A stretch of DNA of 64,000 nucleotides from an uncultured virus (IMG/VR IMGVR_UViG_3300023239_000006). Lineage: Duplodnaviria > Heunggongvirae > Uroviricota > Caudoviricetes. This document shows positions 1 to 61,299 of this stretch, one piece after another. The stretch covers positions 62,001 through 126,000 of IMG/VR virus record IMGVR_UViG_3300023239_000006, one strand, 5' to 3'. How positions within the stretch are numbered: the stretch's first letter is position 1; each line of letters begins with the position of its first letter. A program made the position numbers and the translations under genes. A model generated the notes under the pieces. The model made no database searches and was not told the DNA's origin. It saw only the letters and a list, made by a program, of their open reading frames with translations.

Positions 1-22
1 ATTGTATTTATCGGAGAAAAAT

Positions 23-889
23 ATGAATCAAAATGTAAATATACCGCAAACGCCAAAATTAAATCCTTTGGCTAATTGGTATAGACAGCCTAAAATCTAT
101 GTGAGATTGCCTAGTCAAGGTCGATTCTATCCCCCAGGTGCATTAGACGTTAGTGCAAACGAAGAATATCCTGTATACTCAATGACTGCCAAAGACGAGT
201 TAATGTTTAAAACTCCTGATGCACTGTTAAGCGGGCAAAGTACAGTTGAAGTTATTAAAAGTTGTATTCCTGCTATTTTAGATCCCTGGGCAATGCCCAG
301 TATTGATCTAGACTTTGCACTCATTGCTATCCGCATCGCTACCTACGGCGAAAACATGGAAGTTAGAGTAGACTGTCCACATTGCAAAGAAGAAAATACC
401 TACGATATCAACCTGTCAGACTGGATTGGTATCTTTAGCCAATTTACTTACAATTCAATTGTAGAAGCTGGGCCGCTAAACGTGCATGTGAGACCTTACA
501 ACTATAAAGAAGTTACAAAAGCATCAATTAAAACACTAGAGCAACAGAAGATCTTTGGCATTATTAACAATGAAGAAATCAGCGATGAACTAAAGTTAGA
601 AAAGTTTGGTGAAAGTTTTGTTAGACTAACTGAACTCACAGTTGATATTATTGCAGATTGCATTACACATATTGAAACTCCAGACGGATCCACTGACGAT
701 AAAGTTCAGATCAAAGACTTTATTAATAATTCATCTAAAGATGTATTTGAAGCTATCCAAACACACATTACTAAAATTAAAGATACTATAGAGTTTAAAG
801 CAAAAGATGTCCAATGCGGAGACTGTCATAAGGAGTTCTTACTACCTGTGACAATGGACCAATCAAATTTTTTCGCAGTAAAATCTTAA
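23..889 (+). CDS. T4 gp26-like baseplate hub / tail assembly protein
   Basis: 'LPSQGRFY...MTAKDEL...DLDFALIAIRIATYGE...CPHC' pattern and a second CxxC near the C-terminus are typical of gp26-like proteins. Start moved from TTG (2) to ATG at 23, which follows GGAG at 13-16. Confidence 0.75.
   Translation: MNQNVNIPQTPKLNPLANWYRQPKIYVRLPSQGRFYPPGALDVSANEEYPVYSMTAKDELMFKTPDALLSGQSTVEVIKSCIPAILDPWAMPSIDLDFALIAIRIATYGENMEVRVDCPHCKEENTYDINLSDWIGIFSQFTYNSIVEAGPLNVHVRPYNYKEVTKASIKTLEQQKIFGIINNEEISDELKLEKFGESFVRLTELTVDIIADCITHIETPDGSTDDKVQIKDFINNSSKDVFEAIQTHITKIKDTIEFKAKDVQCGDCHKEFLLPVTMDQSNFFAVKS
865..874 (+). other. candidate -1 programmed ribosomal frameshift site (A AAT TTT / T TTT TTC)
   Basis: In-frame codons TCA AAT TTT TTC contain two overlapping X XXY YYZ heptamers, and the -1 frame is open to 1101. 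Confidence 0.6.
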
Positions 890-897
890 ACAGCCCT

Positions 898-1101
898 TTG
901 CCGGAGATTTTACAGATAGCCAAACGGATGGAGTCTGAGGTTAAGGGAATCAAGAAAGACGTTCTCAAAATGTGTTGGTACATGAGAGGTCTTTCTTATA
1001 GTGAAGGCATGAATCTAAGTCATGATGAAAGAGAAATTGTTGCTGAGATTATTAAAGAAAACTTAGAGACTACAAAGAAAACTAACTTACCTTTCTTTTA
1101 A
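898..1101 (+). CDS. small gp51-like baseplate/tail assembly ORF (possibly the -1 frameshift extension of the upstream gene)
   Basis: 67-aa ORF ('LSYSEGMNLSHDERE'). TTG start with no clear RBS. Frame is open from 832 and overlaps the 3' end of the upstream gene in the -1 frame. Confidence 0.55.
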   Translation: MPEILQIAKRMESEVKGIKKDVLKMCWYMRGLSYSEGMNLSHDEREIVAEIIKENLETTKKTNLPFF

Positions 1102-1147: not shown

Positions 1148-1714
1148 TTACTTTTGACGGAACAATGTAAAGCCTTCGGCAACTACTTTACCGCTATTAA
1201 CTTTACTTTGAGTCTGCATAGCTGGTTGAGCTGGTTGAGCTGCTGCTCTGCCAGTAACTCTAACTGGATTTTTGCGTACAGGAGCCGGCGCTGTCATTGA
1301 AGTTTGTAGCATAGCAAGAATTTTCTGTTTCTCGCTAGGCTTTAAAGTGGCAATGGCCTGCTGTGCTTGTTTGTACCCAGATGCTGCTGCCATTGGTGCT
1401 GCGTTCTTAGGAGCTGCTTTCTTAGGAGCTGCTTTCTTAGGAGCCGTAACTTTAGCATATTCATCGTCATATGCTTTTTTCACAGCTGGATCTTGTTCTG
1501 CATCTGGTTCTGCATCTGGAACATCACCTGCAATGTTTGCAGTAGAAGTAGCTTTACCTTTTTGGTACGCTTTCTTAACGCCACCTGCAATGCCGCCAAT
1601 CATACCAACGCCTTTAGCAACCCCGCCAATGCCCTTAGCTAGTCCACGACCAATAGCACCTAACGGTCCTTCTTCAAGTTCTTGTGATTCAGTTAAGATT
1701 TCAGTTAGTCGCAT
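1148..1714 (-). CDS. Ala/Lys/Pro-rich hypothetical protein, probable internal head protein
   Basis: 188 aa. N-terminal 'LTE ILTE..LEE' motifs resemble T4 gp21 protease sites. Contains PKKAA repeats. AGGA RBS and an upstream ATAAATA late-type motif. Confidence 0.6.
   Translation of the reverse strand: MRLTEILTESQELEEGPLGAIGRGLAKGIGGVAKGVGMIGGIAGGVKKAYQKGKATSTANIAGDVPDAEPDAEQDPAVKKAYDDEYAKVTAPKKAAPKKAAPKNAAPMAAASGYKQAQQAIATLKPSEKQKILAMLQTSMTAPAPVRKNPVRVTGRAAAQPAQPAMQTQSKVNSGKVVAEGFTLFRQK
1398..1444. repeat. 15-bp tandem repeat x3 (encodes PKKAA)
   Basis: GCTGC(G/T)TTCTTAGGA at 1398, 1413 and 1428. Confidence 0.85.
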
Positions 1715-1776: not shown

Positions 1777-2296
1777 AATGAGCTAAAGCTCATTTGCTTT
1801 TTCGCTCACGCTCAAAGCACTTCTTTTATTTAACAGTATTTTAAGAGATATGTTATTAATGCAATTAAGTATTATGCAGATTGTTCAGTCACACTTAGCC
1901 CTTGCGGGCTAAGAAAATCTAGCATTATGCGAGTTGCACAGTACACAGTAGCGTTAGAACTATAAGCATTGCTGCTTGCGTAGGCGGTTATCCGGTACCT
2001 ACTCATTCCGTCTTAATAATAACGGCGAATTACTATGCACACGCTATCGCACATAGTAATCGTGGGTCTCTCTCCCATCTTTTAGCCTTTTTTAATATTC
2101 TCTTTATAAATCAAACCGGTTGTACGTAGGCGTATCCGATCGTCGTCCTGTTAAGGATAGTGATTTATAACCTCTTCACCAAGTAGAGATTCCTTACCGT
2201 CACACATCAGAACGGATTTGGGGCACAGTTATAGTCGCCGGTGCGGGCTTTTTTGGTGATTAAATGCCTGGATTTGTTGAAATTGTCTGTGCCTAG
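1777..2296 (-). ncRNA. candidate large structured non-coding RNA (~520 nt)
   Basis: The only long ORF-free gap in the window. At least 10 inverted-repeat helices, three closed by GNRA loops when read on the minus strand (GCAA 1894-1913, GCAA 1964-1977, GUGA inside 1795-1819), plus long-range pairings. Boundaries approximate. Confidence 0.7.
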
Positions 2297-2976: not shown

Positions 2977-4758
2977 TTATTGTACTATCTCTACGTCGTT
3001 GCTGTAAGTGGTAAAGCCGCCTTCTTTTATTACTTTGAGCACATGATTTACTCGACTGGTTAAATCATCACGGTGACTGATCAAGAACACATTCTTATCA
3101 CGCTCGCGAGTCATCTTTTTAAGTACACTAATAGAACTTTCAACACCGCTAGCGTCCATACCGCTATCAACAAGCTCGTCAATAAACAATAAGTTGATAC
3201 TATGATATAAGTTTTCCCACACATCACGGAATGCCCAGCTCATACTTAGAATTAATCGATTACGTTCACCACGTGATAAGTTATCAAAGTCTAGATCTTG
3301 GCCTAACTGTGTAATAATAACACTCAAGTCATTCTGGAATTCAACGATATGTGGCAACCCAATCTTATCGAGGTAATATGTTAGGCGTTGATTCAAGTGC
3401 GCTAAGTTTTGATCAATAATTCGTTTGCGTACAAAACTATCTTTATTTGTTAGCAACTTGTGCAGGAACTCTTGATGCTCTTTGATGCGGTTAGCTTCAT
3501 TTACAGCTTGCCAGTTAATTTCCTGAACCGCACTTTTCTTAAGTTCGTTAATCTGTTCAAGATACGGATTATTATCACCTTCTTTAATTTCTAAATCTTT
3601 AATTAACCCGTTGATAGTATTCTTATGATTAAGTGCTTCCTCTAAGCTGTCGTACTGTACTCTAGGACAATCACCCAATTCACCAATTTCTTTCAAGGCA
3701 AATTCAGTGTCCATAATTATTTCCCCGGCAGATTCGAAGTTAACAGTAGCTTCTTCGAGATCTTTAAGTTTACCGGAAAGTACAGACTCATGTTTTTCAT
3801 CGTGAAATTCTTGTCCGCAGGCATGACATTGGTGATTTTTAAGAGTAGCAATTTCAGCAGTTAGCTTATCGAATCGTTTTGTATCTTTATCTTGTTCTAA
3901 TCGAGTGCGTTGCATTGCGCTAGTTAAATCGTTAATGTCTTTACGTTTTTCATTGTAGAGAGCAAGAGCCTTATGATTAACAATTTCAACTTCTGGATCA
4001 ATAGTACTAAGCGTGTCAATGCTCTTTAAAATATTTTCGATATTTTTTTCTTTAGTCTCATCCCACAGGCGCTGTTTTCGTTCTAGCGCATCGATACTCT
4101 GCTGTATACGCTCGTTGGACACTTTGATAGTTTCAATGCGAGTGTTTTCTGTCGTAATTGAATCTTTGCTAATACGGATAGCTTCTTTAAGGGTTTCTGC
4201 TTTTTCAGAAAGTAAAGTAATGCCCAATAACTGCTCAATAATGCTGCGTTGTTCACCAGCTTTCATAGACAAGAACGGTTCGGTGTAAGTGTTCAACGCC
4301 ACAAGATGCTTAAACATATCGTGACTCATGCCCATCATTTCTTCGATGGCTTTTTGTGTTTCACGACTATCACCTTGACTTTCGTCTAGGTCTTTAAGAT
4401 ATTGTTCTTGACCATTGATACTAAATTTGAGTACGTTAGGTTTACGGCCACGTTCAATATGATACTCTTGACCATCTTTGTCAAATGTCAGGGTAACTAA
4501 CATACCCTTACCGTTAATCTTGTTAACTAGATTATCTTTTTTGATGTTAGTAAGAGCAGTTCCATAAATGCCATAGCTAAGGCCGTTAATAATAGTAGTC
4601 TTACCAGTACCGTTGCGAGCACCACTATCATCTCCACCAAGGTCTAAGTTTTCACCGAGTACAAGTGTAAGCTGGCCTTTGTCAAAACTAATAGCCTGGG
4701 TTTGATTGCCCACACTCATAAAGTTGCGAACGGTTAAATTCTTTATCTTAATTGTCAT
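2977..4758 (-). CDS. gp46: recombination ATPase, T4 gp46 / SbcC / Rad50-like
   Basis: Walker A NGTGKTT, coiled coil with CHAC zinc hook, LSRGE signature, Walker B LLFIDE, ISH H-loop. Confidence 0.95.
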   Translation of the reverse strand: MTIKIKNLTVRNFMSVGNQTQAISFDKGQLTLVLGENLDLGGDDSGARNGTGKTTIINGLSYGIYGTALTNIKKDNLVNKINGKGMLVTLTFDKDGQEYHIERGRKPNVLKFSINGQEQYLKDLDESQGDSRETQKAIEEMMGMSHDMFKHLVALNTYTEPFLSMKAGEQRSIIEQLLGITLLSEKAETLKEAIRISKDSITTENTRIETIKVSNERIQQSIDALERKQRLWDETKEKNIENILKSIDTLSTIDPEVEIVNHKALALYNEKRKDINDLTSAMQRTRLEQDKDTKRFDKLTAEIATLKNHQCHACGQEFHDEKHESVLSGKLKDLEEATVNFESAGEIIMDTEFALKEIGELGDCPRVQYDSLEEALNHKNTINGLIKDLEIKEGDNNPYLEQINELKKSAVQEINWQAVNEANRIKEHQEFLHKLLTNKDSFVRKRIIDQNLAHLNQRLTYYLDKIGLPHIVEFQNDLSVIITQLGQDLDFDNLSRGERNRLILSMSWAFRDVWENLYHSINLLFIDELVDSGMDASGVESSISVLKKMTRERDKNVFLISHRDDLTSRVNHVLKVIKEGGFTTYSNDVEIVQ

Positions 4759-16011: not shown

Positions 16012-19000
16012 ATGGCAGATAAAAAATTCCCTCAAAGCGGTTTACCAATCAGAAAAACTGTTGAATTGTTACCAACAGTTTTTAGATCAGACGCGAATGA
16101 CAAATTCATGTCGGCAGTGGTTGATCCGTTAGTTCAACCAGGCACCTTACAAAAGTTAGTAGGATATGTTGGAAGACGCTATGGAAATACATACAACGGA
16201 TCTGATATCTATATTGATACTGATAATACACTACGTAGCAGATATCAGTTAGAACCTGGAGTAGTTTCTAGAACCAATAACACTGTAGACAGTTTCTACG
16301 ATTATCTCGATTTTAAAAATCAATTACAGTTCTTTGGAAATACAGAGGAACGTGACGACTTAATCACAGGCCAAGAACACTACAGTTGGAATCCTCCTAT
16401 TGACTGGGACAAGTTTATTAACTATCGCGAATACTACTGGGAACCTAGTGGACCACCAGCGATACCAGTATTCGGTCAATCAGCAAAAATTATTAGCACA
16501 TACAAAGTTGCTCTCGGATTAAACTCTTTTATCTTTACTCCTGATTCATTTACTAATAATCCAACAATTACACTATACCGTGGCCAATCATATAAATTTC
16601 AAATTAAAGCACCTAAAGAAGGGTTTGCAATTAGAACAAACTATGACACTGGCTCATTAATATTCAATCCAGCCCGCCCATATTCTGCAAACGAACAAGC
16701 GGTATATGATGGCAAACTATGGAAAGCTAAAGTAGCAATTGCGTCTGGAGCCAGCAGTAGTATTACGCTTGGAAGTCAGGATTGGGAATTTATAGCACTT
16801 GTAGCGTCAGGCACTGCCCTTGACTATAGCATTGGTGTTACTAATAATGGAATTGAAAACGGAACCTTAACTTTTAAAGTACCGTACGACGCACCTGATG
16901 TATTATTCTATCAAAGTTTAATTGATCCTAACAAGTTTGGTAGGTTTCTAATTACTGATATTGAGGCAAACACAAAGATAAACATTGATAAAGACATCAT
17001 TGGCAAAATAACCTACACTAGCAGCAACGGAATAACATTCTCAAACGGCATGGTTTTAGAATTTAGAGGACAAGTTACTCCTTTAAAATATAGTCTAGAC
17101 AGTTGGCTAGTAGAAGGAGTAGGCACAGCAATTACATTAACACGGTTTGCAGATCTTATTGTTCCTGTGTTGACAACAGATACTCCGGAAGTTGTATTTG
17201 ATAATGAAGGATTTGATACTCAGCCGTTTGACGATGCAACAACATATCCTGCACAGAAAGATTATATCACTATCAAACGTGATAGCAAAGATACTAATCC
17301 TTGGAGTCGTTATAACCGTTGGTTCCACCGAAATGTATTAGAATATTCTTACACTTTACGAGGCGAAGATTTTTCAGCAACTGAATCTCAAAGAGCAAAA
17401 CGTCCTATCATTGAGTTTAAGTCAAACATTCAATTGTTTAATCATGGTAGTATTTCTAAAGAAGTTGTAGACTATATTGATGATTATACAACAGATGTAT
17501 TTTCTAAAATAGAAGGTAGTGTTGGCTACAACATTGATGGAGAAAATTTATTTGAAGGCGCTCGAATTTTAGTAACTGCTGATACTGATATTCTTGCAAA
17601 CAATAAAATTTACGAAGTTAACTTTATTACACATAATAACAAAAAACGAATACATTTAGCAGAAACTACAGATTCTGATTCTGTAGCAGGCGCCGGAGTA
17701 TTAGTACGTCGAGGTAAGAATAACGGCGGATTGATGTATTATTTCAATGGATCAAGTTGGTTAGCTAGCCAAGCAAAAACAGCAGTCAACCAGCCTCCGC
17801 TATTTGATGTGTTTGACAGTAATGGAATAAGTTTTTCCAATACTGATACGTACCCTATAAATTCTTTTAACGGAAACAAACTATTTGCATACAAGATTGG
17901 AAACAGTATTGCGGACAAAGAATTAGGATTTAGTCTAAGTTACTTGAATATTGACAATGTGGGCGACATCCAGTTTGACTGGAATTGGGAAATTGATAAT
18001 TTCACATACACTCTTGATCAATTAGAGTTGACTAAAAATATATCTAGCGGATATTTCAAAATTAATCCAGACGATGTTTATTTAAACGGATGGACTAAAA
18101 CTGATAATACATATATCCAGCCTATCATTGATAGTCAGGTCATTACCGAAGTAACTAACACTATAAAGTTAACAACTATTAACTGGGATAATGTTACTGA
18201 TAATACTAATTTAATAATTAATTTCTATGTTAACCAACAGCAAAAACAAGTAACGCCTATTACTAGAGAGCGCGGAGTATTCACTTTTGCAAATAATTTT
18301 GCAGTTGACGACGTTGTATATGTTAAAATAATTACAGATTTGTCTCCAGATACCGGGTATTATGAAATGCCGGTTAGTCTTGAAAAGAATCCGTTAAATC
18401 AAGCATTAACAACTTTTACATTAGGCCAGGCAATTGATCACGTAGCTGGATCAGTTGAGTTTGATACTAGATATTCTGGAAATATTCCAGGCATTTCTAA
18501 TATTCGAGATCTAGATGACTACCAACCGTTTGCAAAAAGATTTTTAAAGCATTCTGGAATTGCACCGTTAGCAGTTAGTTTATTATGTGATAAAACTTCT
18601 AACATAATTAAATCAATTCAACATGCTAGAAAATCTTATACAGATTTTAAAAATAATTTTATTGCTAGGTCTACTACTATAGATTATAACGATAACTTAA
18701 TTAATTTTGTTGATGATATCATTACCGACTTAACCAAGACAAAAAATGCAGATAGTGCATTTTCAAATTCTGACATGATTGGCAGCGGCGCATTTATTGC
18801 TATCAACTATACAGTAGAAGATACTGGAATTACAACATTTGCATTATCAGAGAAATTTACACTAACTGAACTAAGCAACAGAGCAGTTTATGTTTACATA
18901 AACAATCAACAGTTATTGAACGCTACAGAATATGAATTTAATGCTACTTTTGGTTTTATAACTATTTTAGCTGACTTGGCAGAAAACGACGAAGTTGAAA

Positions 19001-22000
19001 TTAGAGAATATATTTCGACAGCAGCAAACTATATTCCGTCAACACCAACATCAATGGGACTGTATAAAAAATACACACCAATGAAATTTGTCGATGATAC
19101 TTACCAAGAACCTAGAGAAGTAATTCAAGGCCACGACGGTAGTATTACTGCCTCTTACGGCGATTTCCGTGATGATCTATTATTAGAACTAGAATACAGA
19201 ATTTACAACAACATTAAGCAAGAATATAATACAGCTATTTTTGATAATGATTTAGTAGTAGGCGGATACTACAGTAACGTATTGTATACTAAATCTCAAT
19301 TAGACGGCATTGTTGTGCAAGAGTTTTTAAAGTGGGTTCAAAACACAAATATTAACTATACAATTAACGAGTATTTTGATAGTGAAAATTCTTTCACTTA
19401 CACATACAGTAACATGACCGACCCATCTGGTACACAAAATTTGCCAGGGTACTGGAGAGGAGTATACCAGTGGTTCTTTGACACTGATCGCCCACATCGT
19501 TGCCCTTGGGAAATGTTAGGATTTTCAGAGCAGCCAGTATGGTGGGAAGCAGAGTACGGTTCTGCTCCTTATACTAGCGGCAACTTAATTCTTTGGGAAG
19601 ACCTTGAAGCTGGCATAATCCGCAAAGGCACTACTGCTGGAACGTATGATAGATACAAGCGTCCTGGATTAACAACATATATTCCGGTTGATAGTGACGG
19701 TAACTTACTAAGTCCGTTAGACGCCGGGGTATCTAAAAACTTTACATTGATAAACAACAGAGGAAGCTTCGTATTAGGGGATGTTAGCCCAGCAGAGTAT
19801 GCTTGGAGATCTAGCAGCGAATGGCCGTTTGCTGTAACATTAGCAATGTGTTTAATGAAACCGTTTGAATTTATTACAGACAGCTTTGATAGGTCCAATA
19901 CAACTACAAATATATTAGGGCAAACAATTAATTCTAAGACAGGAGTGTTTTCAACTCTTAAAGATATTGTAATATCGACAGCTAGTAACGAACTAACATC
20001 TGGGCTAGTGAAATATGTCTCAAGTTATATTAGATCTATTGGTGCAGATATTTCAGAAGTTAATACAAAGCTACGAAATCTTGATGTTAATTTATCTACT
20101 AGATTGTCAGGCTTTGTTGACAAAGCTCAACAAAAGTATATTTTAGACAGCAAGAATCCAAGTGCAACTTCTAGTAACATTTACATTCCTGCAGAAAACT
20201 ACGACATTATTTTTAATGTTAGTTCTCCGATCGCAAGTGTTTCCTATAGCGGAGTGATATTAGAAAAATCTGAAGGCGGATGGGTTATAAGTGGCTACGA
20301 TAATATTCACCCGTATTTTAACTACTATCCAGCTGTAGCTAATCAAGCCGATCCTACAATCTCAGTAGGCGGAGTTAGTGAAACATTTACTGACTGGACA
20401 ACAAATAAAACCTACAACAATGGACAGATAGTACGTCGGAATAATACATTTTATAGAGCTTTAAGAACTCATAGTAGCAGTACGGTCTTTGATACAGCCC
20501 AGTGGAAAAAATTACCACAGTTGCCACTAGTTGGCGCAGTGGAAGCACAACGTCGTAGAACTTTTAATACTTTGAATCTTTCTAGACTCAGCTATGGTGC
20601 TAGATTAGATACTGTGCAAGAAGTAGTTAACTTTCTGCTAGGGTATGAAGCATATCTAAAATCTGTTGGGTTTACCTTTAATAGATACGATCCAGCAAAT
20701 CAAGTTTCTCAAGACTGGACAACAAGCTGCAAAGAATACATGTTCTGGACCAGACAGAATTGGGCAGTAGGGTCTCTAATTACATTAAGCCCAGGCGCAG
20801 AAAAATTAGATATTACAATTCCAGTAGGAGTTGCTGATAATATTCTAGATGGATTCTACAGTTACCAGTTATTAAAAGCCGACGGAAAACCGTTAGCTCC
20901 TAATTTTATTAACGTTAACAGAAGTTTTCAAAATATCACAGTAGCGACTACTAATACTACAGAAGGTATCCATTACCTAACAGTATACTATGTGCTTAAA
21001 GAACACGTTGCTATTTTCTCTGATCGTACAGTATTCAATGATATTATCTATGACAAGTCAACTGGGTATCGCCAGGATAGGCTAAAGACACAAGGATTCC
21101 GCACAGTTGATTGGGACGGGGATTACACTAGCCCTGGCTTTTTGTTTGATAACGTTAACATTACTGCCTGGGCTCCTTTTAATGATTATAAGTTAGGAGA
21201 CATTGTTTCTTATAGAAGTTACAATTGGACTAGCCTTGTAAACCAATTAGGGTCAGAAACATTTAACAATACTAGCTGGACAAAACTAGATTCAACCCCG
21301 GAAAAACAACTAGTTGCAAACTTTGATTATAAGATCAATCAATTTGAAGATTACTATAATGTAGATGCTGAAGGTACAGGTGAAAGCCAACGTGCTCTAG
21401 CACGTCACGCAGTTGGTTACCAGACTAGAGAATATTTACAAACTCTAGCTGAAGATCCAGTAACACAGTTCCAATTATATCAGGGATTTGTTAGAGAAAA
21501 GGGCACAGCAAATGCAATTTCTAAAGTGTTTAATAAACTAAGTCGTTCAACAGGAGACAGTATTGTACTCAATGAGGAATGGGCATTTAGAGTTGGCCGC
21601 GTCGGCGGAACAGATCAATTAAGAGAAATTGAGTTTGAATTTTCAAAGAATAAATTTAAAATTGATCCCCAACCGTTTTTATTAACAGCTAATATTGATA
21701 CAGCTATCACTGATCAATATTATAGAATCGCACAATCAAATTTTACAGTATCTCCTATAGACTTTACTTTTAATGTAACTCCTGTAGCATACAGCAATGG
21801 ATTAGAAAAAACGGCTGGATATGTAAAAAATGATCAAATAGATTTTATATTGAAATCTAGAGACGACATTTTAGATCTTGATATTAATAGTGTTGTAGAA
21901 AATGATCATATCTGGATCACATTTGATTCATACACCTGGACAGTTTTACGATATAACCAAGCACCACAACTTAATATTATTGACGTATCTCTAGCAGATG

Positions 22001-25000
22001 GGCAAGTAACAATTACACTGTCACGCCGTCATAGTCTTATAGTTGACGACATTGTTGGGGTTAAGGAAATTCCTAATCTTACAGGATTTTTTAAGATTGT
22101 TGAAGTTGGAGATTATACATTAGTAGTTGAAGCAACCTCAACTACTGCACCTGAATTTGATGCTAGCACACTTACAACATTGTACACGTTGACTACTGCT
22201 CGTACTGCATCCTACGACACATTGGATCCAGAAGCAGCCGCATTATTAGTTAATGGCGCTAAACTGTGGGTTGACAACAACGGCAGTGACCTTTGGGAAG
22301 TTATTAGAAAAAATAAACAATTTGTAAACAAAGAATTAACTGAGTATGGCATTACCACTCCTATTAATGCAGGAACTAAAGTTATCTATGATGACAATTT
22401 AAAACAGACTATATCTAGTATTCCAGGATCCGGATATGTAATGAGTTATATTGAATCACATAATGGTCTAACACTAAAACAAATTATTGCTCCTCTAAGC
22501 GGGTTCGAGTCAAATGTTGTTGGATCGTTTGGTAGCAAGATGGCGATAAGTCCAGACAGTCGTTGGTTAATCGTGTCATCACCATTGGCCAGCGGAATCA
22601 AGAGTAATTACCAGGGTGGTTTTTCATCAGCATCATACATAGAGGATGATATTGTTCTATATGCTGGTAGTTTATGGAAAGCAAACAAGGATATAAACAC
22701 TAGCGATTACAGCACGATTGATCTTGATTCAGAAAATTGGGAACAAGCTAACTCTATTCCTGCACTATCGTCCGGAAGAGCTCCTGGATTTACTCAGCAA
22801 GGTATGATTTCTATTTACGAATGGAGTAACCAACAATGGAATATACATTCTTCATTTGTTAGCCCGCGTCCACAAGAATATGAATTCTTTGGCTCAGAAG
22901 TTGCAATTGGAGTAAGCGGCACAGAATATTACATGGCAGTCTCTGCAATCGGTTCACTAGAAAATCGAGGAAGAGTTTACCTATTTGAATACGACGGCGT
23001 AGAGTGGACACACAAAGAAAATTCTAGCTATGCTGGAATCTATGATCCAACAGGAGCAACTAGTTACCCAGCAGGAACAATTGTTTGGTTTAACGAATCT
23101 TTGTGGCAGTCTCTAGAAGACCAACTAGGTGACGGCAGCTCTATTACTGTAGACTCACAACAGTGGACACAACTAGATCCAGTATCTACACATACCTCAC
23201 TACCATCAAATATCTCCATTGACGATGATGGATCAACATTAGCGCTTATAAATCTTACAGAAGAAGCTACTATTGGTATATTAGGCAACACGCAATTAGC
23301 AGAATTAATTAAAGTAGGAGACGAGTTCGGTACTTCGATGACTATGAGCCGAGACGGTGGCATTCTTGTTATCGGTGCACCAAACAGCGACGGCCAATAT
23401 TTTGCAAACTACAGAGGACAATGGAGAGCAGATGTAGAGTATGCTGAAAATGATGTAGTGAAGTCTGAAACACAATATTATAAATTAACAGATGCAACAA
23501 GCATTAACGACGACCCGTCAGGCAGTGGACTGCCTTGGATTAATGTGGGCGATAGTACCACAGTATCATCTGGCAAAGTTTACATTTACCAACGGTCTAC
23601 ATTGGGAACATATGATCTCAAGCAGACAATCAATGCTGGATCGATGGTAGGGTTAAATGATATTACTACCGGCAATACAGAAATTAATGCAGGCGACCAA
23701 TTTGGATTTGCTATTGATGTTGATTATTCAGGAACTACACTAGTAATAACAAGTCCTAGGGCAGACTTAAATCTTATAAATCAAGGCTCTGCTTATGTGT
23801 TCGAAACTGCAGGACTTGCAGCCCTCGAATTTAGATTGAAGCAAAAACTAGAAAGTTTTGAACAGTATGCTGATGAATGGTTCGGCCAAAGTATCTCTAT
23901 TAGCTCTGGTACAGAAAGAATTGCCATCGGCGCAAAGAATACTCCGTTTGTTAATGTCACAATGTTTGATACTCTAGATGGTACATCGTTTGATCAGTCG
24001 CTAACACGATTTATCGATGCAAAGGGATATGCAGGCGCAGTATATGTATTTGAAAGAAAAGCAGATAGCTATTTCCTAACTGAAAAATTAGAAGCAGAGT
24101 TATCGCCGTTTGAATCTTTTGGTAATAGCATAGATTGTACTAGATCTGCAATAGCTGTAGGATCTCCCAGATTTGTTGCGCCGGTATTGTCTGGATCAGC
24201 ATTTACATACCCTGGACAAAAGATAGGCACAGTTAGATTGTTTAGAAAAGATGAAACTATCGAATCATGGGAAGTGTTATCAACTAAGCAAAAAATTGTT
24301 GACCTTGCAAAAATTCGAAGCATTGGGTTATATGACAATGTCAAAAACACAAAAATTCAAGACATAGACTATGTTGACCATGCTAATTTAAAAATATTAA
24401 ATTCTGCAGAACAGGAACTTGCATTCAAAACTCCGTTTGATCCGGCAGTGTACACACTAGGAACTGATGATCAAGTTGTTGAACCAACACAGTCATGGAC
24501 TACTAAACATGTAGGTGAACTTTGGTGGGATTTGTCACAAGCTAAGTGGATAGACTATCAGCAAGGCGATATTGCTTATCGAGTAGGCAACTGGAATACT
24601 CTTGCAGCAGGCGCAAGTATTGACATTTACGAATGGGTAGAAAGTTTACTGCTACCGTCAGAATGGAGCGGAGTTGCAGATACTAACGAAGGTATAGCCG
24701 AAGGTATTTCCGGACAGCCATTATATCCTAATGATAATGTGTATTCAGTTAAAGAACTGTTTAATTCTAATACTGGGCTAGCAACCTCAACCTTATACTA
24801 TTATTGGGTCAAGAGCAAAGTAACAGTACCTGAAAATATGCCAAGCAGAAGAATATCAGCTGCATCAGTTGCATCATATATCAGTAGCCCAGCAGGAACC
24901 GGAACAGCATTTGTTGCACTACTAGATACAGACAAAATATTAACGTATAACTTTACCTCGGTTATCTCGTCTGATACAGCATTGTTGAATATTGAATATC

Positions 25001-28000
25001 GTAAAACCACTGATAGTTTAAATGCAATACACAACGAATATCAATTGTTAACTGAAGGTGTAGCAGATAGCGTACCTACAAAACAGTTAGAAACAAAATG
25101 GATTGATAGTTTAATTGGTATAAATTTAACAGGTGACCGAGTTCCAGATTCTACATTATCTGACAAACAAAAATACGGAATAAGTTTTAGACCAAGGCAG
25201 TCAATGTTTGTTAACAATATAGCAGCACTGAAAGCAGCTATACAACGAGTTAATACTGTGTTGCAACAGGAATCGTTTGCAGATATTATCAATTTTAATA
25301 ACTTAAATTTAATTGACCAAGCACCTAATGCTGTATTAAATCGCTATGATGTTGCAGTAGATACATACGCAGACTTATTATTAGTGGGTACAGCTAAAAC
25401 TCGTCAAGCGACTTTATCAGTTAACATTGTAGACGGATTAATCGATACTATTGATATTGTTAGTCCGGGATTTGGTTACAAGCCAACAGAATTAGTTAAT
25501 CAATCAATTCCTGGAGTGTATGTTGGTCCAACGATTAGTATAACAGGTACAGGTACAGGAGCCACAGCAGCATGCCGCATTGATGGCCAGGGCAGAGTTA
25601 TTGCAGTTGTAATAACTTCAAAAGGTAAGAAATATAGTTCAGCATCTGCAACAGTAAGACAGTTCTCGGTTTTAGTTAATAGTGATGCTACTTCTAATAA
25701 TTTCTGGAGTATATATGCATGGGATGATGTAAGAAAAGTGTTCTTTAGAAGTATATCGCAATCGTATGACACAACACGTTATTGGAGTCTATCAGATTGG
25801 TGGAAAGAAGGATATACTCCAACAGACCGCATTGTTAAGGAAATTACAAATCTTTCAGAGTATCCTGCGATAACACATCTTGAGGCAGGAGATCTAGTCC
25901 GTATTAAAGAATACGGCGCTGGCGGATGGGCAGTCTTTGAAGAACTAACTAATTTGCAAAATACTAGCATTAATACATTTTTAGATAACCATCAACTAGT
26001 AGGTAGAGAAAAAGGTACTGTGGAATTATCTAGCAGTTTGTATGATATTACATCATCTGGGATTGGGTATGATACTGCCCAAACATTTGATGCTACTTAC
26101 TATGATATAGGAAATTCTACCGAATTAAGAAATATTTTTGCGGCAATCAAAGAAAACATATTTATTGGCGACTATGCAATCGAATGGAACCGACTATTCT
26201 TTAATTCTGTAAGATATGCATTTGCTGAACAGACATATATTGACTGGGCGTTTAAAACTAGTTTCTTAACGGCTACTCATAATGTAGGTCCGCTAACGCA
26301 AAAACTTAATTACAAAAATGATAACATTGAAAGTTTCCAAGAATATATTAACGAAGTTAAGCCATATAGAACAACGGTAAGAGAATATATCAGCAGATAC
26401 GACACAATAGAAGCGGCACCGTCTGCAATTTCAGATTTTGATTTACCTCCAACTTACTCAGTTGAAGCAGGAAAAATTGTTCCAGTAAACCAATACAGTA
26501 TCGAATTGCAATCGTATCCGTGGAAATGGTGGACGGATACTAACGGATATTCTATAACAGCAATTACTACATATAAATCAGGTGCAGATTATATTTCAGC
26601 TCCTGCAGTATTAATTACCGGAACAGGTACGGGTGCAACAGCGCAGGCATACATCTCAAACGGTGCAGTCTCTGGAATTAAAGTAACAAATCCGGGAACA
26701 GGATATACATCAGCGCCAACTGTTACATTAGTCGGAGGCAATCCAGCAAGTTCAGAGCAAGCAAAAGCGGTAGCATTCATTGGAGACTCGAAAGTTCGAA
26801 CTTTCGATCTAACTATGAAATTTGATAGGATTAGCAAAACAGGCCTGTTCACAACATTTTCACAGTCTCAGACACTTGTTGGAACTGGAAATGTTTCCGT
26901 GTTCAATTTAAACTATGCTCCAACTAGAGATAAAAGTAAAATTTCAGTTGTTAAAAATGGACAAGTTTTATTAAACAATCAATATTCTATTAGCTTATTC
27001 ACTTCTACCACTGATACTTATAGTTTACTAAAAGGAAAGATCAGCTTCACAGAAATCCCAGCTAGAGGAGATAGTATTGTAGTTAACTACGAAAAGAATG
27101 ATTCTTTACTAGACAGTGTTAATAGAATACAAAAATACTATGCACCTACAGCAGGAATGAAAGGCAACGAGTTAACCCAGTTAATGACAGGTATTGACTT
27201 CGGCGGCGTGCAAATACAAGGTACAACATTCGATGTCACTGGCGGCTGGGATGCACTACCATGGTTTACTGATAATTGGGATAGTGTTGAGTCGAGTGCA
27301 GATTATTATGTTGTATGCGACGGCAGTACTGTTAATATTACATTACCGTTTGTTCCGGCCACAGGTCAAGAGATTAACATCTACATTAAAAGAGTAGGCG
27401 ATCAAAGATCTATTAGAATTGACGATCCGGCATTTAACAATCAAGTAGATTCGTCAACTTCATCAAATCCTAATGCAGAAATGCCAACCTTTATCGGCGA
27501 CGGAGTTACTGCAACAGTTGATTTTGTAAATCAACTAACTGACTTTCCTTACGTTGAAACTGCTGCCGGCGACATTTTAATATTCCGTCCGGTCGAAAGT
27601 GATGGATCTGTATCAATTAACGATGGTAATTTATTAGACACTAATTTAAGCGGTGGCACACTAGCAAGTATGAGCGGCGCATATTCTACAGCTACCGGTA
27701 TCACAGCAGACGAAATTTCAATAGACGGTGACAAATTTATTAGTCCTGATCAAGTGCCTGCTACTGAAGAAAACGTACCAGGTCAGGTCCTAGATAGTGT
27801 AAGCATCAAAGTGTTTAACAACACATCAACTGGAGCTGCACCTTTACAGTCTAAAACTATCATAGCTGACGGTACTACTAAGTTATACACTATTGATTTG
27901 AATGTATTAGAAACAACGTCTGTATTAGTTTATGTTAACAAGATTAATCAAGAAGATAGTTATACAATTGATTTTGTATCTAACCAAATTGAGTTTATAG

Positions 28001-51721: not shown

Positions 51722-52358
51722 CTACTGATTCTTTAGCCTTTGTTGTTTTTTTAGCCGGAGGATCTAACTCGTCTGCATCTTTACGTAGCTTGGCTGCTTC
51801 TTTATACATGGCATCTGCTTGACTACGATAACTTTTAGCAATATCTTTATCAGACAATGCTTCGTTTGATACAGCTTGAGCACGTACTGGCGCAGGAATG
51901 TCAGTGTCAACTGCCGGTACAACTTCTTTCTTCGGTTGCTCTCGCAACTTAACTGATGGAGTTGATCCCTTAACGAAGTTACATAGCTCGTCGATTGTGC
52001 AATTCTTTTGCTCTGCAATCAATACATTTAATTGATCCAACGGCATATTATGCTGATTAGTTGGAGTCATAATAACTGAATCAGATGGAACCTTCTGCAT
52101 ACGATTATCAATTTGCATAGCCTGCAACATTGGTCTACCGTCTGGGAAATACTTGACAAACATCTGCTCACCAAATTCAAATGAATCTTGTGCAGGCTCA
52201 GTTTCGACTAGATCCATAATAGCATTATGATATTGATCTGGCAATGTTGCTGTAGGCAACACTAATGACATATGTGATTCGCCTGGCAATGTACGGAAAA
52301 CAACAATAACTTTATTACCGCTGTTTTTCATTTTACCGATGTGTTTTAATGACTGCAT
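51714..52358 (-). CDS. hypothetical protein
   Basis: 214 aa; GGAGG RBS. Confidence 0.75.
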   Translation of the reverse strand: MQSLKHIGKMKNSGNKVIVVFRTLPGESHMSLVLPTATLPDQYHNAIMDLVETEPAQDSFEFGEQMFVKYFPDGRPMLQAMQIDNRMQKVPSDSVIMTPTNQHNMPLDQLNVLIAEQKNCTIDELCNFVKGSTPSVKLREQPKKEVVPAVDTDIPAPVRAQAVSNEALSDKDIAKSYRSQADAMYKEAAKLRKDADELDPPAKKTTKAKESVDA

Positions 52359-52359
52359 A

Positions 52360-52584
52360 TTAAGCCTCCTTTTTGTTTGCTACAGATTCTAAGAATGTGT
52401 TTAACTTATTGAAAGTTTTACCTACCGCTTCTAGCTCTGCTGCTTTAAACGCCCCGCGCTGACTTGCTACTTCTATAATACTCTTTAGTGCAACTAGATC
52501 GCTGATATTAAGATCAGTACTAGATTGTGCTCCTTGAGCTGGCTGTGCTGCAACATCTTCGATTGCTTTAACTTCTTCTGTCAT
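52360..52584 (-). CDS. hypothetical protein
   Basis: 74 aa; AGGAG RBS; 'IIEVASQRGAFKAAEL..VG..FNKL' small helical protein. Confidence 0.75.
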   Translation of the reverse strand: MTEEVKAIEDVAAQPAQGAQSSTDLNISDLVALKSIIEVASQRGAFKAAELEAVGKTFNKLNTFLESVANKKEA

Positions 52585-52585
52585 A

Positions 52586-52858
52586 TTAGGTTCTCCTTAA
52601 ATGTGGACAGGCTAACATAAAGTATGTTAGTTCTTTTTGGTCTTCAAACGCCACAAACGTGGCAGATTTTAATTTTCCGTCTTTATCAATTGCAGGTGAT
52701 CGAACAACACAATATCGTCCTTTCAGTCTAGCATCAACCCAATCAATTAACTCATTATCAAATAGTACCATCTCTCCAATTTTTGTTTTGGCAAAATGTG
52801 GAGGCAATGTGCTTACTCTACGTTGTTTTAAAATAGCAATAGGGTTGAGATTGAACAT
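52586..52858 (-). CDS. hypothetical protein
   Basis: 90 aa; perfect TATAAATA just upstream. Confidence 0.7.
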   Translation of the reverse strand: MFNLNPIAILKQRRVSTLPPHFAKTKIGEMVLFDNELIDWVDARLKGRYCVVRSPAIDKDGKLKSATFVAFEDQKELTYFMLACPHLRRT

Positions 52859-52866
52859 AGTGAAAA

Positions 52867-52874
52867 TATTTATA
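52867..52874 (-). promoter_or_regulatory. T4 late promoter consensus TATAAATA
   Basis: Exact T4 gp55 consensus in an intergenic gap. Confidence 0.65.
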
Positions 52875-52885
52875 AATTATTGTTG

Positions 52886-53284
52886 TTAGGTTGCTGATTC
52901 TTGGCTAAATCTTTTTGCTAGGGCCTTGTTATATCCTATCTTACGGATATCCCCAGAAAATAGATAAAGCTCGAATGCAGCACGTTCACGTAGTACAATG
53001 ATATATTTTTTTGTTATAAAATAGGGAGATTCAATAAAGTTATCCAACCAAACTAGTACTTGAGGAGTAATAGCAAAGTCTTTAGGAAAGTCTACTTTAT
53101 ATGTTTTAATTTTAGCATGATCGTTGATAAACGTCAATGCGTGTTCACTCAAACGTTGCCCGCCTTTGTCCTTATCGCGAACGTTCCACCACCACAGACT
53201 GCGATATTGTTTGAGCGTATCCGAGTCGGCTGGTTGTCCTGCAGCCTCTAAGAATACCTTAGTATAGGTATCCTTGATGTCCAT
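52886..53284 (-). CDS. hypothetical protein
   Basis: 132-aa ORF, tightly packed. Confidence 0.7.
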   Translation of the reverse strand: MDIKDTYTKVFLEAAGQPADSDTLKQYRSLWWWNVRDKDKGGQRLSEHALTFINDHAKIKTYKVDFPKDFAITPQVLVWLDNFIESPYFITKKYIIVLRERAAFELYLFSGDIRKIGYNKALAKRFSQESAT

Positions 53285-53285
53285 A

Positions 53286-53570
53286 TTATTCTACCTTTTC
53301 ACCAGTGGTTAATTTGTATACTTCAAAGTCTTCAGTTTTAAAAAGACGATTTAGTTTCTTAGCAAGATTATGCGCATGACCAGGATTGCTAAAACTTACT
53401 TTCTTATATTTTGGGCCGGGGTAGCTAGCAACTAGACTACCACTCTTTAGATTAAAAGGTTGGCCTTTATAGAAAACCGCCCAGATAGCTTCACTATTAA
53501 GAATCTGTTCGATCTTAAAGTTTTCTTTATTTGCATGTTCTAACAATACTTTTGGCTTTGGTCTGCTCAT
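53286..53570 (-). CDS. hypothetical protein
   Basis: 94 aa, basic; AGGA RBS and TATAAATA upstream. Confidence 0.75.
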   Translation of the reverse strand: MSRPKPKVLLEHANKENFKIEQILNSEAIWAVFYKGQPFNLKSGSLVASYPGPKYKKVSFSNPGHAHNLAKKLNRLFKTEDFEVYKLTTGEKVE

Positions 53571-53600
53571 ACTATACGTGTTCCTAGTTAACCACGTATA

Positions 53601-53608
53601 TATTTATA
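53601..53608 (-). promoter_or_regulatory. T4 late promoter consensus TATAAATA
   Basis: Exact consensus in an intergenic gap. Confidence 0.65.
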
Positions 53609-53860
53609 TCAATTAAAGCCGCCCCCGTCGAACTTAACATCGATATTAGTAGTTGATTCCTTAATTACAGACAACATAGCATGTATTTCTTGTACAGTCT
53701 TGCCTAATTTGCTAGTCATAATAGCTAATTCTGCTGTTAGATCTCTAGCTTCTTGAATACTGATACGAATATCTTTTTGTTGACTACGTTCGGCAGCAAC
53801 TACCCGCTGAATTAGCTTTTCTACACTAGGTAGATTAGTAGGAAGATTACTTTGAGACAT
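53609..53860 (-). CDS. hypothetical protein
   Basis: 83-aa helical ORF overlapping the upstream gene. Confidence 0.7.
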   Translation of the reverse strand: MSQSNLPTNLPSVEKLIQRVVAAERSQQKDIRISIQEARDLTAELAIMTSKLGKTVQEIHAMLSVIKESTTNIDVKFDGGGFN

Positions 53861-55746: not shown

Positions 55747-56591
55747 TATGTACCCCACTCATTTTTAAACAGCGGCACTTGCAGTCGGTCACTGTATCGC
55801 AAACCGTTCTTCATAGCTAGCACTGCTACGTTCTTATTGTTCATAGCATATACACTTTCGACACCGCCGACTGGCATTAAGTAGACATGTCCTTTAAACC
55901 CTGCTGCACGGAATGCAGCAATTGCACGTTCGGCATCGGCAAAGTCTTGTTCTGTAGCAATAACAAACTTCAAATATGCTGTACCAACTTCTTCATACTC
56001 ACAAACAACTTCTGGCTTAATAGCGTCTTCCCACTTTTCACCACTGCATGGCAGTTTAGCACTTACACTGAATGTAAGTTCTTTACCTACTTCACTATTC
56101 CACTTAGCCAAGAAACCTTTAAACTCCGGAGTCAGTTTTTGAGTACCGTTTGTTTCAAAAGTAATCTCTTTCAAGTCACGCATCTTGGTGTTGTTAAGCA
56201 AATCCGGATAAGCACGTTGCCAGCCCAGTAGCGGCTCGCCGCCTGTAATAACCAAGTGTTCGTCCTTCCAATGATCCTGCGGGAGAATTTCCATAATACG
56301 ATCTACAATTGCTTCGCTTGTAAGCATCGGACTAAGAGTTTTGAACTCTGGCATCCAGCTAGCGTAGCTATCACAGCCAGTACTAACTAGTGGCAAGTCC
56401 TCGTATTTTGCAAACATATGAGCAACTACTGAAATTTCTTCAGCTTCCTTGCTTAGTTCACCTCTAGGCATGCCAAATCCGCTACACGTAAAGTTGCAAC
56501 CAAATGTGCGTAGAAATACAGAAGGGACGCCCATATAACGTCCTTCACCTTGAATGCTGTAAAACAGCTCTGCGATTTTAATTTTACTCAT
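55746..56591 (-). CDS. queE: 7-carboxy-7-deazaguanine synthase (radical SAM)
   Basis: 'ELFYSIQGEG..G.PSVFLRTFGCNF.C...CDS', ITGGEP, ETNGT and RLQ motifs; same cluster as folE. Confidence 0.9.
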   Translation of the reverse strand: MSKIKIAELFYSIQGEGRYMGVPSVFLRTFGCNFTCSGFGMPRGELSKEAEEISVVAHMFAKYEDLPLVSTGCDSYASWMPEFKTLSPMLTSEAIVDRIMEILPQDHWKDEHLVITGGEPLLGWQRAYPDLLNNTKMRDLKEITFETNGTQKLTPEFKGFLAKWNSEVGKELTFSVSAKLPCSGEKWEDAIKPEVVCEYEEVGTAYLKFVIATEQDFADAERAIAAFRAAGFKGHVYLMPVGGVESVYAMNNKNVAVLAMKNGLRYSDRLQVPLFKNEWGT

Positions 56592-56772
56592 AGTTTATTA
56601 TACACTCTTTTTCTGTAATTGCCAAGAACCGTTGCCTTGATCTAGCCATTCTAATGTGTCTCCTTCTTTCCAATTTTGCATATCTAACAGATCTTGCGGT
56701 ATTGGCATAATAAGATCGCCATTCTCGGGATCTTCTTTTAGGGTAACTGTCCAGTGTGTCATATTCTATCAC
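56584..56772 (-). CDS. hypothetical basic protein
   Basis: 62 aa, Arg-rich, overlaps both neighbours. Confidence 0.4.
   Translation of the reverse strand: MIEYDTLDSYPKRRSREWRSYYANTARSVRYAKLERRRHIRMARSRQRFLAITEKECIINYE
56597..56625 (-). promoter_or_regulatory. sigma70-type promoter for queE (likely leaderless)
   Basis: TTGGCA, 17-nt spacer, TATAAT ending 5 nt before the ATG. Confidence 0.6.
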
Positions 56773-56953
56773 TTAATAATATTTTACAAAGTAATGCGTC
56801 TTGTTCGTTATTGAACTCAAACGACATTGAATTTTCTGTAGGATGGGATGTGTACTTATCACCAGGAAGCCCAAACTGTTCTAAAACCATCGCGCAGGTT
56901 TCATTCCACCAATGACTATTTTGATTATCCCAAGGAACGAGTATAGTATTCAT
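56759..56953 (-). CDS. hypothetical protein
   Basis: 64 aa, coupled to the upstream gene; GAGG RBS. Confidence 0.65.
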   Translation of the reverse strand: MNTILVPWDNQNSHWWNETCAMVLEQFGLPGDKYTSHPTENSMSFEFNNEQDALLCKILLSDRI

Positions 56954-61169: not shown

Positions 61170-61299
61170 TTTTATGCTCTTTACTTTATTAACTGCGGTG
61201 CGTGTGCCTTGAACTCGGCAACCGCTAGTGCCTATTCCACGTGAATTACGGGTTGATACTTTACTAGAGGAGTTGTGTATGCTGATCCATGTGGTCCCA

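Follow-up and report, generated by a model that had tools for sequence, protein, structure and literature searches.

We analysed a 64,000 nt window of viral DNA (bases 62001-126000 of the 126.6-kb IMG/VR virus record IMGVR_UViG_3300023239_000006, completeness estimate 36%) and describe here a large structured RNA encoded near its start, at 2270-1777 on the minus strand. The RNA lies in a gap (1715-2311) in a minus-strand gene order that begins with a gp46-like gene (2977-4758) and continues through a 77-aa open reading frame (ORF; 2743-2976) and a gene for a 144-aa SegE-type GIY-YIG nuclease (2312-2746; PF19835, E 4.9e-33, residues 3-129), which stands directly upstream of the RNA. Downstream of it is a 188-aa Ala/Lys/Pro-rich ORF with AAPKK-type repeats (1148-1714) that belongs to no Pfam or PHROG family. 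The gene content of the window is that of a T4-like giant myophage, with baseplate hub and wedge proteins, a late sigma factor and SbcC/SbcD-like gp46/gp47, and the nearest relatives of its gp46-like protein are in the jumbo phages PA5oct and Atu_ph07 (47-49% identity). Coordinates throughout are those of the window and run downwards when the RNA is read 5′ to 3′.

The segment 2270-1777 is a conserved structured RNA of approximately 494 nt carried by uncultured T4-like giant phages, and its first third is the catalogued orphan motif Polynucleobacter-1, here extended by a leader pseudoknot. A cmscan search of the whole window at Rfam gathering thresholds returned a single match, to RF01718 (Polynucleobacter-1) at 2249-2104 on the minus strand, which covered the complete model (1-141/141) with a score of 66.4 bits against a gathering cut-off of 37 (E 6.7e-12). 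The window copy has four non-standard pairs in P1 and P2; across 82 copies helices P1, P4 and P6 of the family are 97.5%, 87.7% and 99.8% paired, respectively, with changes on both sides. An earlier note, made from the letters of this DNA alone, had drawn attention to the gap between 1715 and 2311 as free of ORFs and densely self-complementary, and both observations hold: the longest ORF on either strand is no more than 44 aa, and the minus strand folds at -151.5 kcal/mol (z -3.61), a value equalled by none of 100 shuffled sequences, compared with z -2.26 and four shuffles as good for the plus strand. The RNA is encoded on the minus strand, because the Rfam match and legible GNRA and UUCG loops are found on that strand only and the helices include many G-U pairs; the earlier note had likewise found its GNRA loops legible on this strand alone.

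Other known classes were not recovered. A permissive cmscan of 1500-2600 added only chance-level hits (ceN30, 18.9 bits with a cut-off of 65; CRISPR-DR22, 15.7 bits with a cut-off of 50), and neither the whole window at gathering thresholds nor 1500-2600 at E<=10 gave a match to GOLLD, ROOL, OLE, HEARO or raiA. Rfam likewise gave no group I or II intron, RNase P or tmRNA match in the window, where ARAGORN predicted no tRNA or tmRNA genes. An intron carrying a homing endonuclease was considered and rejected, there being no Rfam intron match, the upstream ORF having its own stop codon, and the downstream contexts being different and often convergent. The comparison with Rfam that the earlier note had called for thus confirmed the RNA while removing part of its novelty: its proposal of a new class or a GOLLD/ROOL-like RNA did not survive for the first third, which is RF01718, nor for GOLLD and ROOL, and the remainder matches no Rfam family. 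Polynucleobacter-1 was published in 2010, in a paper that gives it as a probable RNA and possible cis-regulator (table entry 'y') with 16 representatives and 141 positions, and notes its source as 'Burkholderiales, fresh water/estuary' (PMC2864571). A full-text literature search on the motif name returned only this paper, Weinberg et al. (2010). Nothing was found in print on the extended RNA, its repeats or its link to a nuclease, including in the available part of PMC10690425, in a literature search whose scope ended short of bioRxiv supplements.

Relatives were collected by two exact-pattern scans of viral contigs, using a 5′-domain and a 3′-domain motif, which gave at least 118 and at least 119 stretches. 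Searching these with the window sequence by nhmmer identified 44 and 92 family members, respectively, with a union of at least 134 loci, of which 105 are near full length and 82 remained once copies at least 96% identical had been removed. Similarity extends well past the Rfam motif, from the nuclease ORF through the hairpin at 1794-1777, and the flanks diverge beyond. The conserved block begins at an AGGC motif whether it follows a GIY-YIG gene, a PD-(D/E)xK gene, an inserted ORF or none of these. A blastn search with the 597-nt gap as query found no match among 50,697 phage records, which leaves the RNA known, to date, from uncultured phages only; in a pattern scan of genome contigs, none of the 121 matches listed was a family member by nhmmer, and chance matches in high-GC genomes dominated, so that the scan is uninformative about the host.

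The unit as delimited by conservation in the 82 non-redundant loci (1777-2270) runs from the AGGC motif near 2270 and a leader to a 3′-terminal hairpin, all on the minus strand. Its 5′ domain (2104-2249) comprises the RF01718 helices P1 to P6. Beyond the 5′ end of the Rfam model, leader nucleotides 2259-2256 pair with the P3 loop (2179-2176) to form pseudoknot H-alpha, which is 88.8% paired and in which pair 2259/2176 occurs as five types (AU 27, GC 24, UA 14, GU 8 and CG 3). A further pseudoknot, PK1, joins 2248-2246 to the P1 loop (2239-2237) and is 90.9% paired, with pair 2248/2237 present as GC in 56 copies and AU in 19. P1 (2244-2240/2227-2223), P4 (2167-2162/2112-2107) and P6 (2141-2136/2119-2114) covary, and P2 (2197-2215) and P3 (2172-2188) are as in Rfam. 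In the P5 region (2160-2143), which follows P4 and is a 2-bp helix in the Rfam model, a seemingly invariant CACUAUCC...GGACGA motif covaries in a non-standard manner: C2160/G2144 switches to G/C, and A2158/C2145 together with U2157/A2146 swaps to A/U together with C/A. This pattern suggests that P5 is longer than the 2-bp Rfam helix and contains an A-C wobble. The 5′ domain is followed by a conserved single-stranded linker, GGCUAAAAG (2087-2079), that is near-invariant in the consensus.

The middle of the RNA (1949-2077) is a compact core of interlocked pseudoknots. P7 (2077-2074/2066-2063) is followed by P8 (2060-2049/2040-2029; 12 bp in the window), whose loop (2046-2041) pairs with 1954-1949 to form PK2, and P9 (2023-2019/1991-1987) interlocks with P10 (2002-1998/1984-1980) and P11 (2009-2005/1960-1956). 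The segment 1961-1979, with its local hairpin, is an optional and variable insertion; it corresponds to columns 528-646 of the alignment A1 described below, which are gaps in most rows. The 3′ third consists of two tandem homologous arms and then three hairpins. Each arm is laid out as a helix end, AAGUG(UG)AC, a few nucleotides, A-YYY and a 7-nt word that we term X7. Repeat R1 (ACUC plus X7; 1924-1934) lies in or near the loop of a variable hairpin (1948-1936 with 1923-1919), repeat R2 (AUCU plus X7) is at 1871-1881, and between the two stands P14 (1894-1913), an 8-bp hairpin with a GCAA loop that is 90.1% paired and has changed on both sides at five of its eight pairs. Most relatives have a UUCG hairpin in the 3′ domain, of which the window shows a weak form. 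An A/U-rich spacer (1868-1825) whose length varies leads to P16 (1795-1819), which has a GA/GAA internal loop and a GUGA loop and whose inner pairs 1811/1804 and 1810/1805 are 98.8% paired with GC to AU and CG to UA switches in either direction. The 3′-terminal hairpin (1777-1794) ends the unit; all seven of its pairs have changed on both sides and it is 96.4% paired. It is followed by no U tract on the minus strand, and it scores as a terminator on the plus strand only.

We assessed this architecture on two alignments. In A1, made with MAFFT and fitted to no structure, the 66 pairs of 15 helices are 94.1% paired across the 82 copies, compared with 79.0% in shuffled alignments, and 52 of them have changed on both sides. 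The covariation score of 0.436 exceeds that of every one of 500 shuffles (0.179) and falls to 0.086 or less when partners are slid by 1-3 columns; this is the outcome of the homologous-locus comparison that the earlier note had proposed as a check. A3 is an alignment of the central domain fitted to a covariance model, model R1, that was built on six equal-length seeds and matched 79 of the 82 sources (78 distinct rows). Here 36 pairs in six helices are 96.4% paired and 32 have changed on both sides, with a covariation score of 0.674 against 0.215 for shuffles (0/500 reach it) and at most 0.097 with slid partners; approximately 14 insertion-bearing rows are misaligned at the 3′ end and count against the structure there. 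PK2 and P9 are 91% and 98% paired, respectively, although neither was part of model R1. Support for P2, P3, P15 and the stem of repeat R1 comes from Rfam, inspection by eye or single-sequence folds, the structural alignment having covered the central domain. Four pseudoknots are backed by covariation.

Many of the helices that the earlier note had read from the single sequence recur in this model. Those at 2104-2113/2161-2170 (P4), 2172-2188 (P3), 2197-2215 (P2), 2029-2037/2052-2060 (P8), 1980-2002 (P10) and 1894-1913 (P14), and the hairpins at 1795-1819 (P16) and 1777-1794, are all borne out by covariation or the Rfam consensus. Others had to be abandoned: a proposed helix 2222-2228/2287-2293 takes up the 3′ strand of conserved P1 and has its partner in non-conserved sequence, a hairpin at 2008-2025 competes with covarying P9 and P11, and one at 1964-1977 falls within the optional insertion that most relatives lack; some of the note's local hairpins are thus peculiar to the window. 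The note had also called the RNA possibly pseudoknotted. It is, with four covarying pseudoknots, but these are not the long-range pairings then proposed (2229-2236/1958-1965 and 2235-2240/2023-2028), which clash with P1, PK1, P9 and P11. Its general picture, in which a GIY-YIG gene is followed on the minus strand by a large non-coding RNA with several domains and pseudoknots, proved correct and applies across phage contigs.

The duplicated motif that the earlier note had picked out at 1924-1935 and 1871-1882 is likewise real, and it contains the most unusual feature of the RNA. X7, which is GCAUAAU in the window, takes nine forms across the copies and is the same in repeats R1 and R2 in 80 of 82, compared with an average of 13.2 identical pairs, and never more than 25, when the words were re-paired at random (1000 trials). 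The nearest RNA neighbour carries the same X7 in 48 of 80 cases, and pairs of RNAs that are 80-85% identical elsewhere share it in only five of 13; the word has switched many times across lineages. The signal is one of identity covariation and not of complementarity. No third copy or exact reverse complement of X7 is consistently present within 1.2 kb in 30 loci, 7-mer matches in the phage's own genome occur at chance level with no extended match, and mutual information revealed no alignment column complementary to X7. The CACUAUCC motif was rejected as its partner, since a map of cognate versus non-cognate duplexes gave only a weak difference (-0.7 kcal/mol) and the motif does not change along with X7.

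Two further explanations of the repeats were tried and set aside. The segment before repeat R1 pairs mostly with nucleotides after X7, which puts the repeat in a loop, and the cognate arrangement is better in 61 of 80 copies (-5.1 versus -3.7 kcal/mol for non-cognate), mostly because the nucleotides after X7 close the hairpin. An alternating switch between the two repeats fails for repeat R2 (-2.8 versus -2.2 kcal/mol, better in 45 of 80). Read as codons, X7 gives a sense triplet NNA (GGA, AGA or GCA) and then UAA or UGA in 79 of 80 copies, a pattern that recalls the take-off site of T4 gene 60, stop-start overlaps and T-box specifiers. A conserved mini-ORF through X7 was nevertheless rejected: the distance between the repeats is 47-74 nt, with residues modulo 3 in 31, 31 and 18 copies, so that their spacing keeps no frame, and there is no conserved ORF or start codon leading into repeat R1.

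A nuclease gene nearly always lies upstream of the RNA. In a first set of 25 loci with full upstream flank, taken from the RNA, 21 have a SegE_GIY-YIG ORF of 141-171 aa in this position, two have a GIY-YIG gene and, after it, an extra ORF of 257 or 272 aa, and two have PDDEXK_15 (PF24608) instead. A second scan found the GIY-YIG gene by DNA similarity in 47 of 50 loci, the three exceptions being the same two PD-(D/E)xK contigs and one locus (L174) that has no nuclease gene upstream and still scores 64.2 bits against RF01718. The inserted ORFs between nuclease and RNA (257-356 aa) belong to no Pfam or PHROG family, and three of seven are alike; the spacer between nuclease and RNA is an insertion hot spot (L380; L020, L027, L139, L199, L408, L421 and L427). 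Beyond these phages, 444 cultured-phage records contain same-size homologues of the nuclease at less than 60% identity (40-50% among the 25 matches listed), mostly in T4-like cyanophages and also in Methylophilales phages, Sinorhizobium phages and others. We inspected three such records: the nuclease ORF is followed at 148, 29 and 48 nt by the start of the next annotated gene, and the RNA is absent, with no hits to model R1 at E<=1 and no RF01718 match. The homologue of Synechococcus phage ACG-2014d is followed by two tRNA genes (L485 2616-2782); it is annotated as 'NAD synthetase', and this label, shared by PHROG 447 and many records, looks like a mis-annotated GIY-YIG nuclease. Of 28 nucleases related to the PD-(D/E)xK enzyme, eight are followed by the RNA and 20 lack it. 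Together, the RNA-free cultured homologues and these 20 relatives lower the odds of a partnership between nuclease and RNA and raise those of a homing-type nuclease camped beside it.

Across 101 homologues of the nuclease the motif residues GFVY, YIG, REIL, EAREQ and YNG are at least 90% conserved. We take GFVY, YIG, R-E-I-L, E-A-R-E-Q and Y-N-G to be the catalytic residues of a GIY-YIG nuclease. An AlphaFold2 model with a predicted local distance difference test (pLDDT) value of 86.7 shows a GIY-YIG core, a long Lys-rich beta-hairpin insert (residues 40-66) and a floppy tail. Foldseek found nothing in the PDB at E<=0.001, the only meaningful fold match being the I-TevI catalytic domain (probability 0.92, target-normalised template modelling score 0.67, E 0.36), and phmmer gave no match to PDB sequences. 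Comparison of the protein with X7 showed that tail residue 140 weakly tracks the word, being K or R where position 5 of X7 is A and N where it is G, with position 7 also associated. These contrasts yielded no clean one-to-one column and are confounded by divergence (mean identity 0.80-0.85, compared with 0.88 in controls).

The RNA locus is largely syntenic and not scattered. In most copies the gene upstream is gp46-like or radical-SAM, and the RNA is followed either by a gene on its own strand of the 188-aa type found in the window or by a baseplate-hub gene that converges on it. The idea of a mobile cassette in unrelated contexts is weakened accordingly, as most copies occupy one syntenic place. 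A same-strand gene follows the RNA in the window and about half of the loci, and an ATAAATA late-promoter-like motif stands between the RNA and the downstream gene in several. In 11 of 29 listed loci the first sizeable downstream ORF, past short ORFs adjoining the unit, converges on the RNA. In some relatives this convergent ORF is homing-endonuclease-like (PHROG 314/15526; L156 1838-2497 and L164 785-1426), so that the RNA gene can have nuclease genes on both sides. Two loci (L071 and L072) have a histone-H1-like Hc1 ORF upstream of the nuclease. Further downstream in the window, a canonical bidirectional intrinsic terminator, AAAAAGCCTGCTTAAAGCAGGCTTTTT (approximately 1105-1130), separates the convergent ORFs 898-1101 (plus strand, 67 aa) and 1148-1714 (minus strand); the former follows a T4_baseplate (gp26/gp51-like) ORF at 2-889 (plus strand) that stops just past a ATTTTTTC run at 867-874. 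The structural gene block of the window includes one ORF of 4595 aa (16012-29799, plus strand). The earlier note had called the gap that contains the RNA the only long non-coding one. When ORFs of 100 aa or longer are considered, the window has four more, 528-642 nt in length (52358-52886, 53284-53847, 56591-57189 and 60658-61300), which may contain short ORFs or other non-coding elements.

Eighteen DNA runs with the label 'salt lake metagenome' contain the exact DNA of the window, and the record may stem from several of them; six metatranscriptome runs contained 5-7% of the sampled words. Contigs from four of these six span the RNA and nuclease ORF of relatives at 85% likeness or more. One RNA-library contig of 159 nt is identical to window 2014-2167, and another of 1031 nt spans 1923-2952, across the RNA, the nuclease gene and the upstream ORF. 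We regard these contigs as no more than consistent with expression. Unrelated metatranscriptome contigs of very great depth matched the low-complexity stretch 1356-1483 of the 188-aa ORF. The interval from the nuclease ORF to the RNA contains no sigma-70-like promoter.

Our favoured reading, to which we give about an even chance, is that this is an autonomous, trans-acting large phage RNA that shows one 7-nt word twice, with the homing-type nuclease as a resident neighbour. The RNA would probably be produced by read-through from the transcription unit in front of it, and its 3′ end would be the 3′ hairpin, reached either by ending there or by trimming back. The core may position both arms so that the same word is presented twice, and the RNA would then bind the same partner twice over, whether this is a short nucleic-acid word or a dimeric protein. 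The GIY-YIG gene in front, with a PD-(D/E)xK gene in its place in some lineages, would encode a free-standing homing-type endonuclease that has settled next to the conserved RNA gene, whose rival alleles it probably cleaves, the two being tightly linked neighbours and not obligate partners. In cultured phages, members of this protein family are found next to tRNA genes or ordinary genes. That the RNA is a unit of its own is supported by its AGGC start regardless of the upstream gene, by the nuclease-free locus L174 and by the heterogeneous ORFs inserted between the two genes; that the nuclease does not need the RNA is supported by cultured-phage homologues without it and by its presence behind only eight of 28 PD-(D/E)xK relatives.

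Several observations weigh against this reading, chief among them a linkage much tighter than a selfish neighbour would predict. A nuclease gene stands upstream in 25 of 25 and 49 of 50 RNA loci (74 of 75, the sets partly sharing contigs). Starting instead from the nuclease, with the best 80 of 429 stretches encoding relatives (68-100% identity), a profile of the RNA core was matched 153-241 nt past the nuclease ORF in 66 of the 73 that have enough downstream sequence. The seven misses comprise two with a divergent RNA, three with the RNA behind an inserted ORF (294-356 aa), one unresolved and L380, so that five of them carry the RNA on inspection. In L380 (826-1391), 565 nt containing an 86-aa ORF replace the 5′ and central domains and the 3′ domain is kept. 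We found no nuclease-free empty site, 13 of 13 relatives of the downstream protein being collinear with the window through the cassette. The nuclease ORFs are also intact and under purifying selection, and neither Pfam nor the AlphaFold2 model gives the protein a separate DNA-binding domain. Moreover, no partner is yet known for the 7-nt word, and the RNA-library contigs lack strand, ends and abundance and could reflect DNA carry-over.

The same linkage is what would be expected if the RNA and nuclease formed a ribonucleoprotein, with the RNA as scaffold, licence or guide and the X7 pair as specificity elements, an arrangement that we consider unlikely. Linkage in the close GIY-YIG subfamily is near-obligate in both directions, the ORF stops at a fixed short distance from the RNA start even at PD-(D/E)xK loci, and the nuclease is a single-domain protein with a Lys-rich insert at 40-66. 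X7 changes fast and in concert within a conserved scaffold, and its positions 5 and 7 are weakly associated with residue 140 (K/R versus N). On the other hand, same-size homologues in cultured phages manage without the RNA, an unrelated nuclease fold occupies the same spot and is without the RNA in 20 of 28 relatives, and the two genes can be parted, by inserted ORFs, by absence of the nuclease (L174) or by gutting of the RNA beside a retained nuclease (L380). The protein-versus-X7 contrasts are, moreover, unclean and divergence-confounded, and a 7-nt word is too short to serve as a unique guide. A narrower form, in which the RNA would be a specificity or licensing subunit whose X7 pair directs or gates cutting of rival phage alleles by the adjacent GIY-YIG or PD-(D/E)xK enzyme, seems to us distinctly improbable.

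The remaining alternatives make the RNA act in cis. That it is a 3′ untranslated region of the nuclease transcript, which would stabilise, terminate or throttle the message or insulate convergent units, we regard as a poor prospect, although it would account for an RNA that is always directly 3′ of a same-strand ORF, for the missing sigma-70-like promoter between them, for the RNA-library contig that covers RNA, nuclease gene and upstream ORF, and for the plus-strand terminator score of the 3′ hairpin; homing-endonuclease genes of T-even phages are, besides, under tight control. Against it, these roles would require far less than an RNA of approximately 500 nt in which four pseudoknots covary and two words evolve in concert; the RNA is also kept where the ORF in front is unrelated or no nuclease is present (L174), and the window already has a separate bidirectional terminator at 1107-1127. 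Very unlikely, in our view, is a role at the DNA from which the RNA is made, such as that of a structured primer or R-loop RNA at a replication origin: many copies stand next to gp46/gp47-like genes of recombination and replication and the spacer at 1868-1825 is A/U-rich and variable in length, but the upstream neighbours vary (gp46-like, radical SAM and others) and no DnaA-box-like or iteron repeats were noticed, in work that included no dedicated test of an origin. We see almost no chance that the RNA serves the gene behind it as a cis-regulatory 5′ leader, the role first suggested for Polynucleobacter-1 and marked by a 'y' in the 2010 table (PMC2864571). A same-strand gene does come next in the window and about half of the loci, but a further 330 nt or so of conserved structure and the 3′ hairpin lie between motif and gene, the ATAAATA motif intervenes in several loci, and the convergent ORFs in 11 of 29 loci leave no general role as a leader and already contradict it as a general explanation.

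These results turn a 141-nt orphan motif of 2010 into a defined RNA of approximately 500 nt with a covariation-backed architecture and four pseudoknots, and extend the small set of large phage RNAs by one class. A pair of words that stay identical yet switch repeatedly is an unusual covariation signal and points to a testable two-site recognition. With its almost constant nuclease neighbour, the locus is a concrete setting in which to ask whether selfish endonucleases camp beside essential RNA genes or are recruited to work with the RNAs.

Among known systems the closest is Polynucleobacter-1 itself, which matches the window over its whole model and agrees with it in published habitat and phage association. 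The published motif comprises 141 positions that here form the first third of a unit of approximately 494 nt, to which are added the leader pseudoknot, the double-pseudoknot core, the concertedly evolving repeats and the 3′ hairpin; it was considered in relation to the downstream gene, whereas we find the RNA tied to the nuclease gene upstream. GOLLD and ROOL are similar in being phage-borne and non-coding, several hundred nucleotides long and rich in covarying helices and pseudoknots, but there is no match in sequence or structure, the window RNA is shorter than GOLLD, and no oligomer of it is known. GOLLD and ROOL are linked to tRNA genes, unlike the window RNA, which is linked to a nuclease gene. 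Type III toxin-antitoxin systems (ToxIN-like), in which an endoribonuclease toxin processes a tandem array of short RNA repeats, were rejected as a model, there being only two 11-nt repeats here, lying within a large unique fold and the protein having a GIY-YIG DNase-type fold. The OMEGA systems (IscB/TnpB with omega RNA; HEARO) resemble the locus in that a small nuclease gene abuts a long, conserved, structured RNA on the same strand. They differ in that the nucleases here are GIY-YIG (PF19835) or PD-(D/E)xK (PF24608, PDDEXK_15) and not RuvC/HNH, that both RNA ends are conserved structure, with no variable guide at an end next to an element boundary, and the sole hypervariable segment is the internal twin 7-nt word, and that homologous nucleases exist without the RNA. 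The seg genes of T4 encode free-standing homing endonucleases, and segB lies in a tRNA cluster. The window locus is like them in having a SegE-type GIY-YIG gene between genes and next to a conserved structured-RNA gene, in the exchange of nuclease families at one site, and in the ACG-2014d homologue beside two tRNA genes; it differs in that the window family is of 141-147 aa with no separate DNA-binding domain and with cleavage only predicted, and in that occupancy is near-complete and not sporadic, the 13 relatives of the downstream protein including no empty allele.

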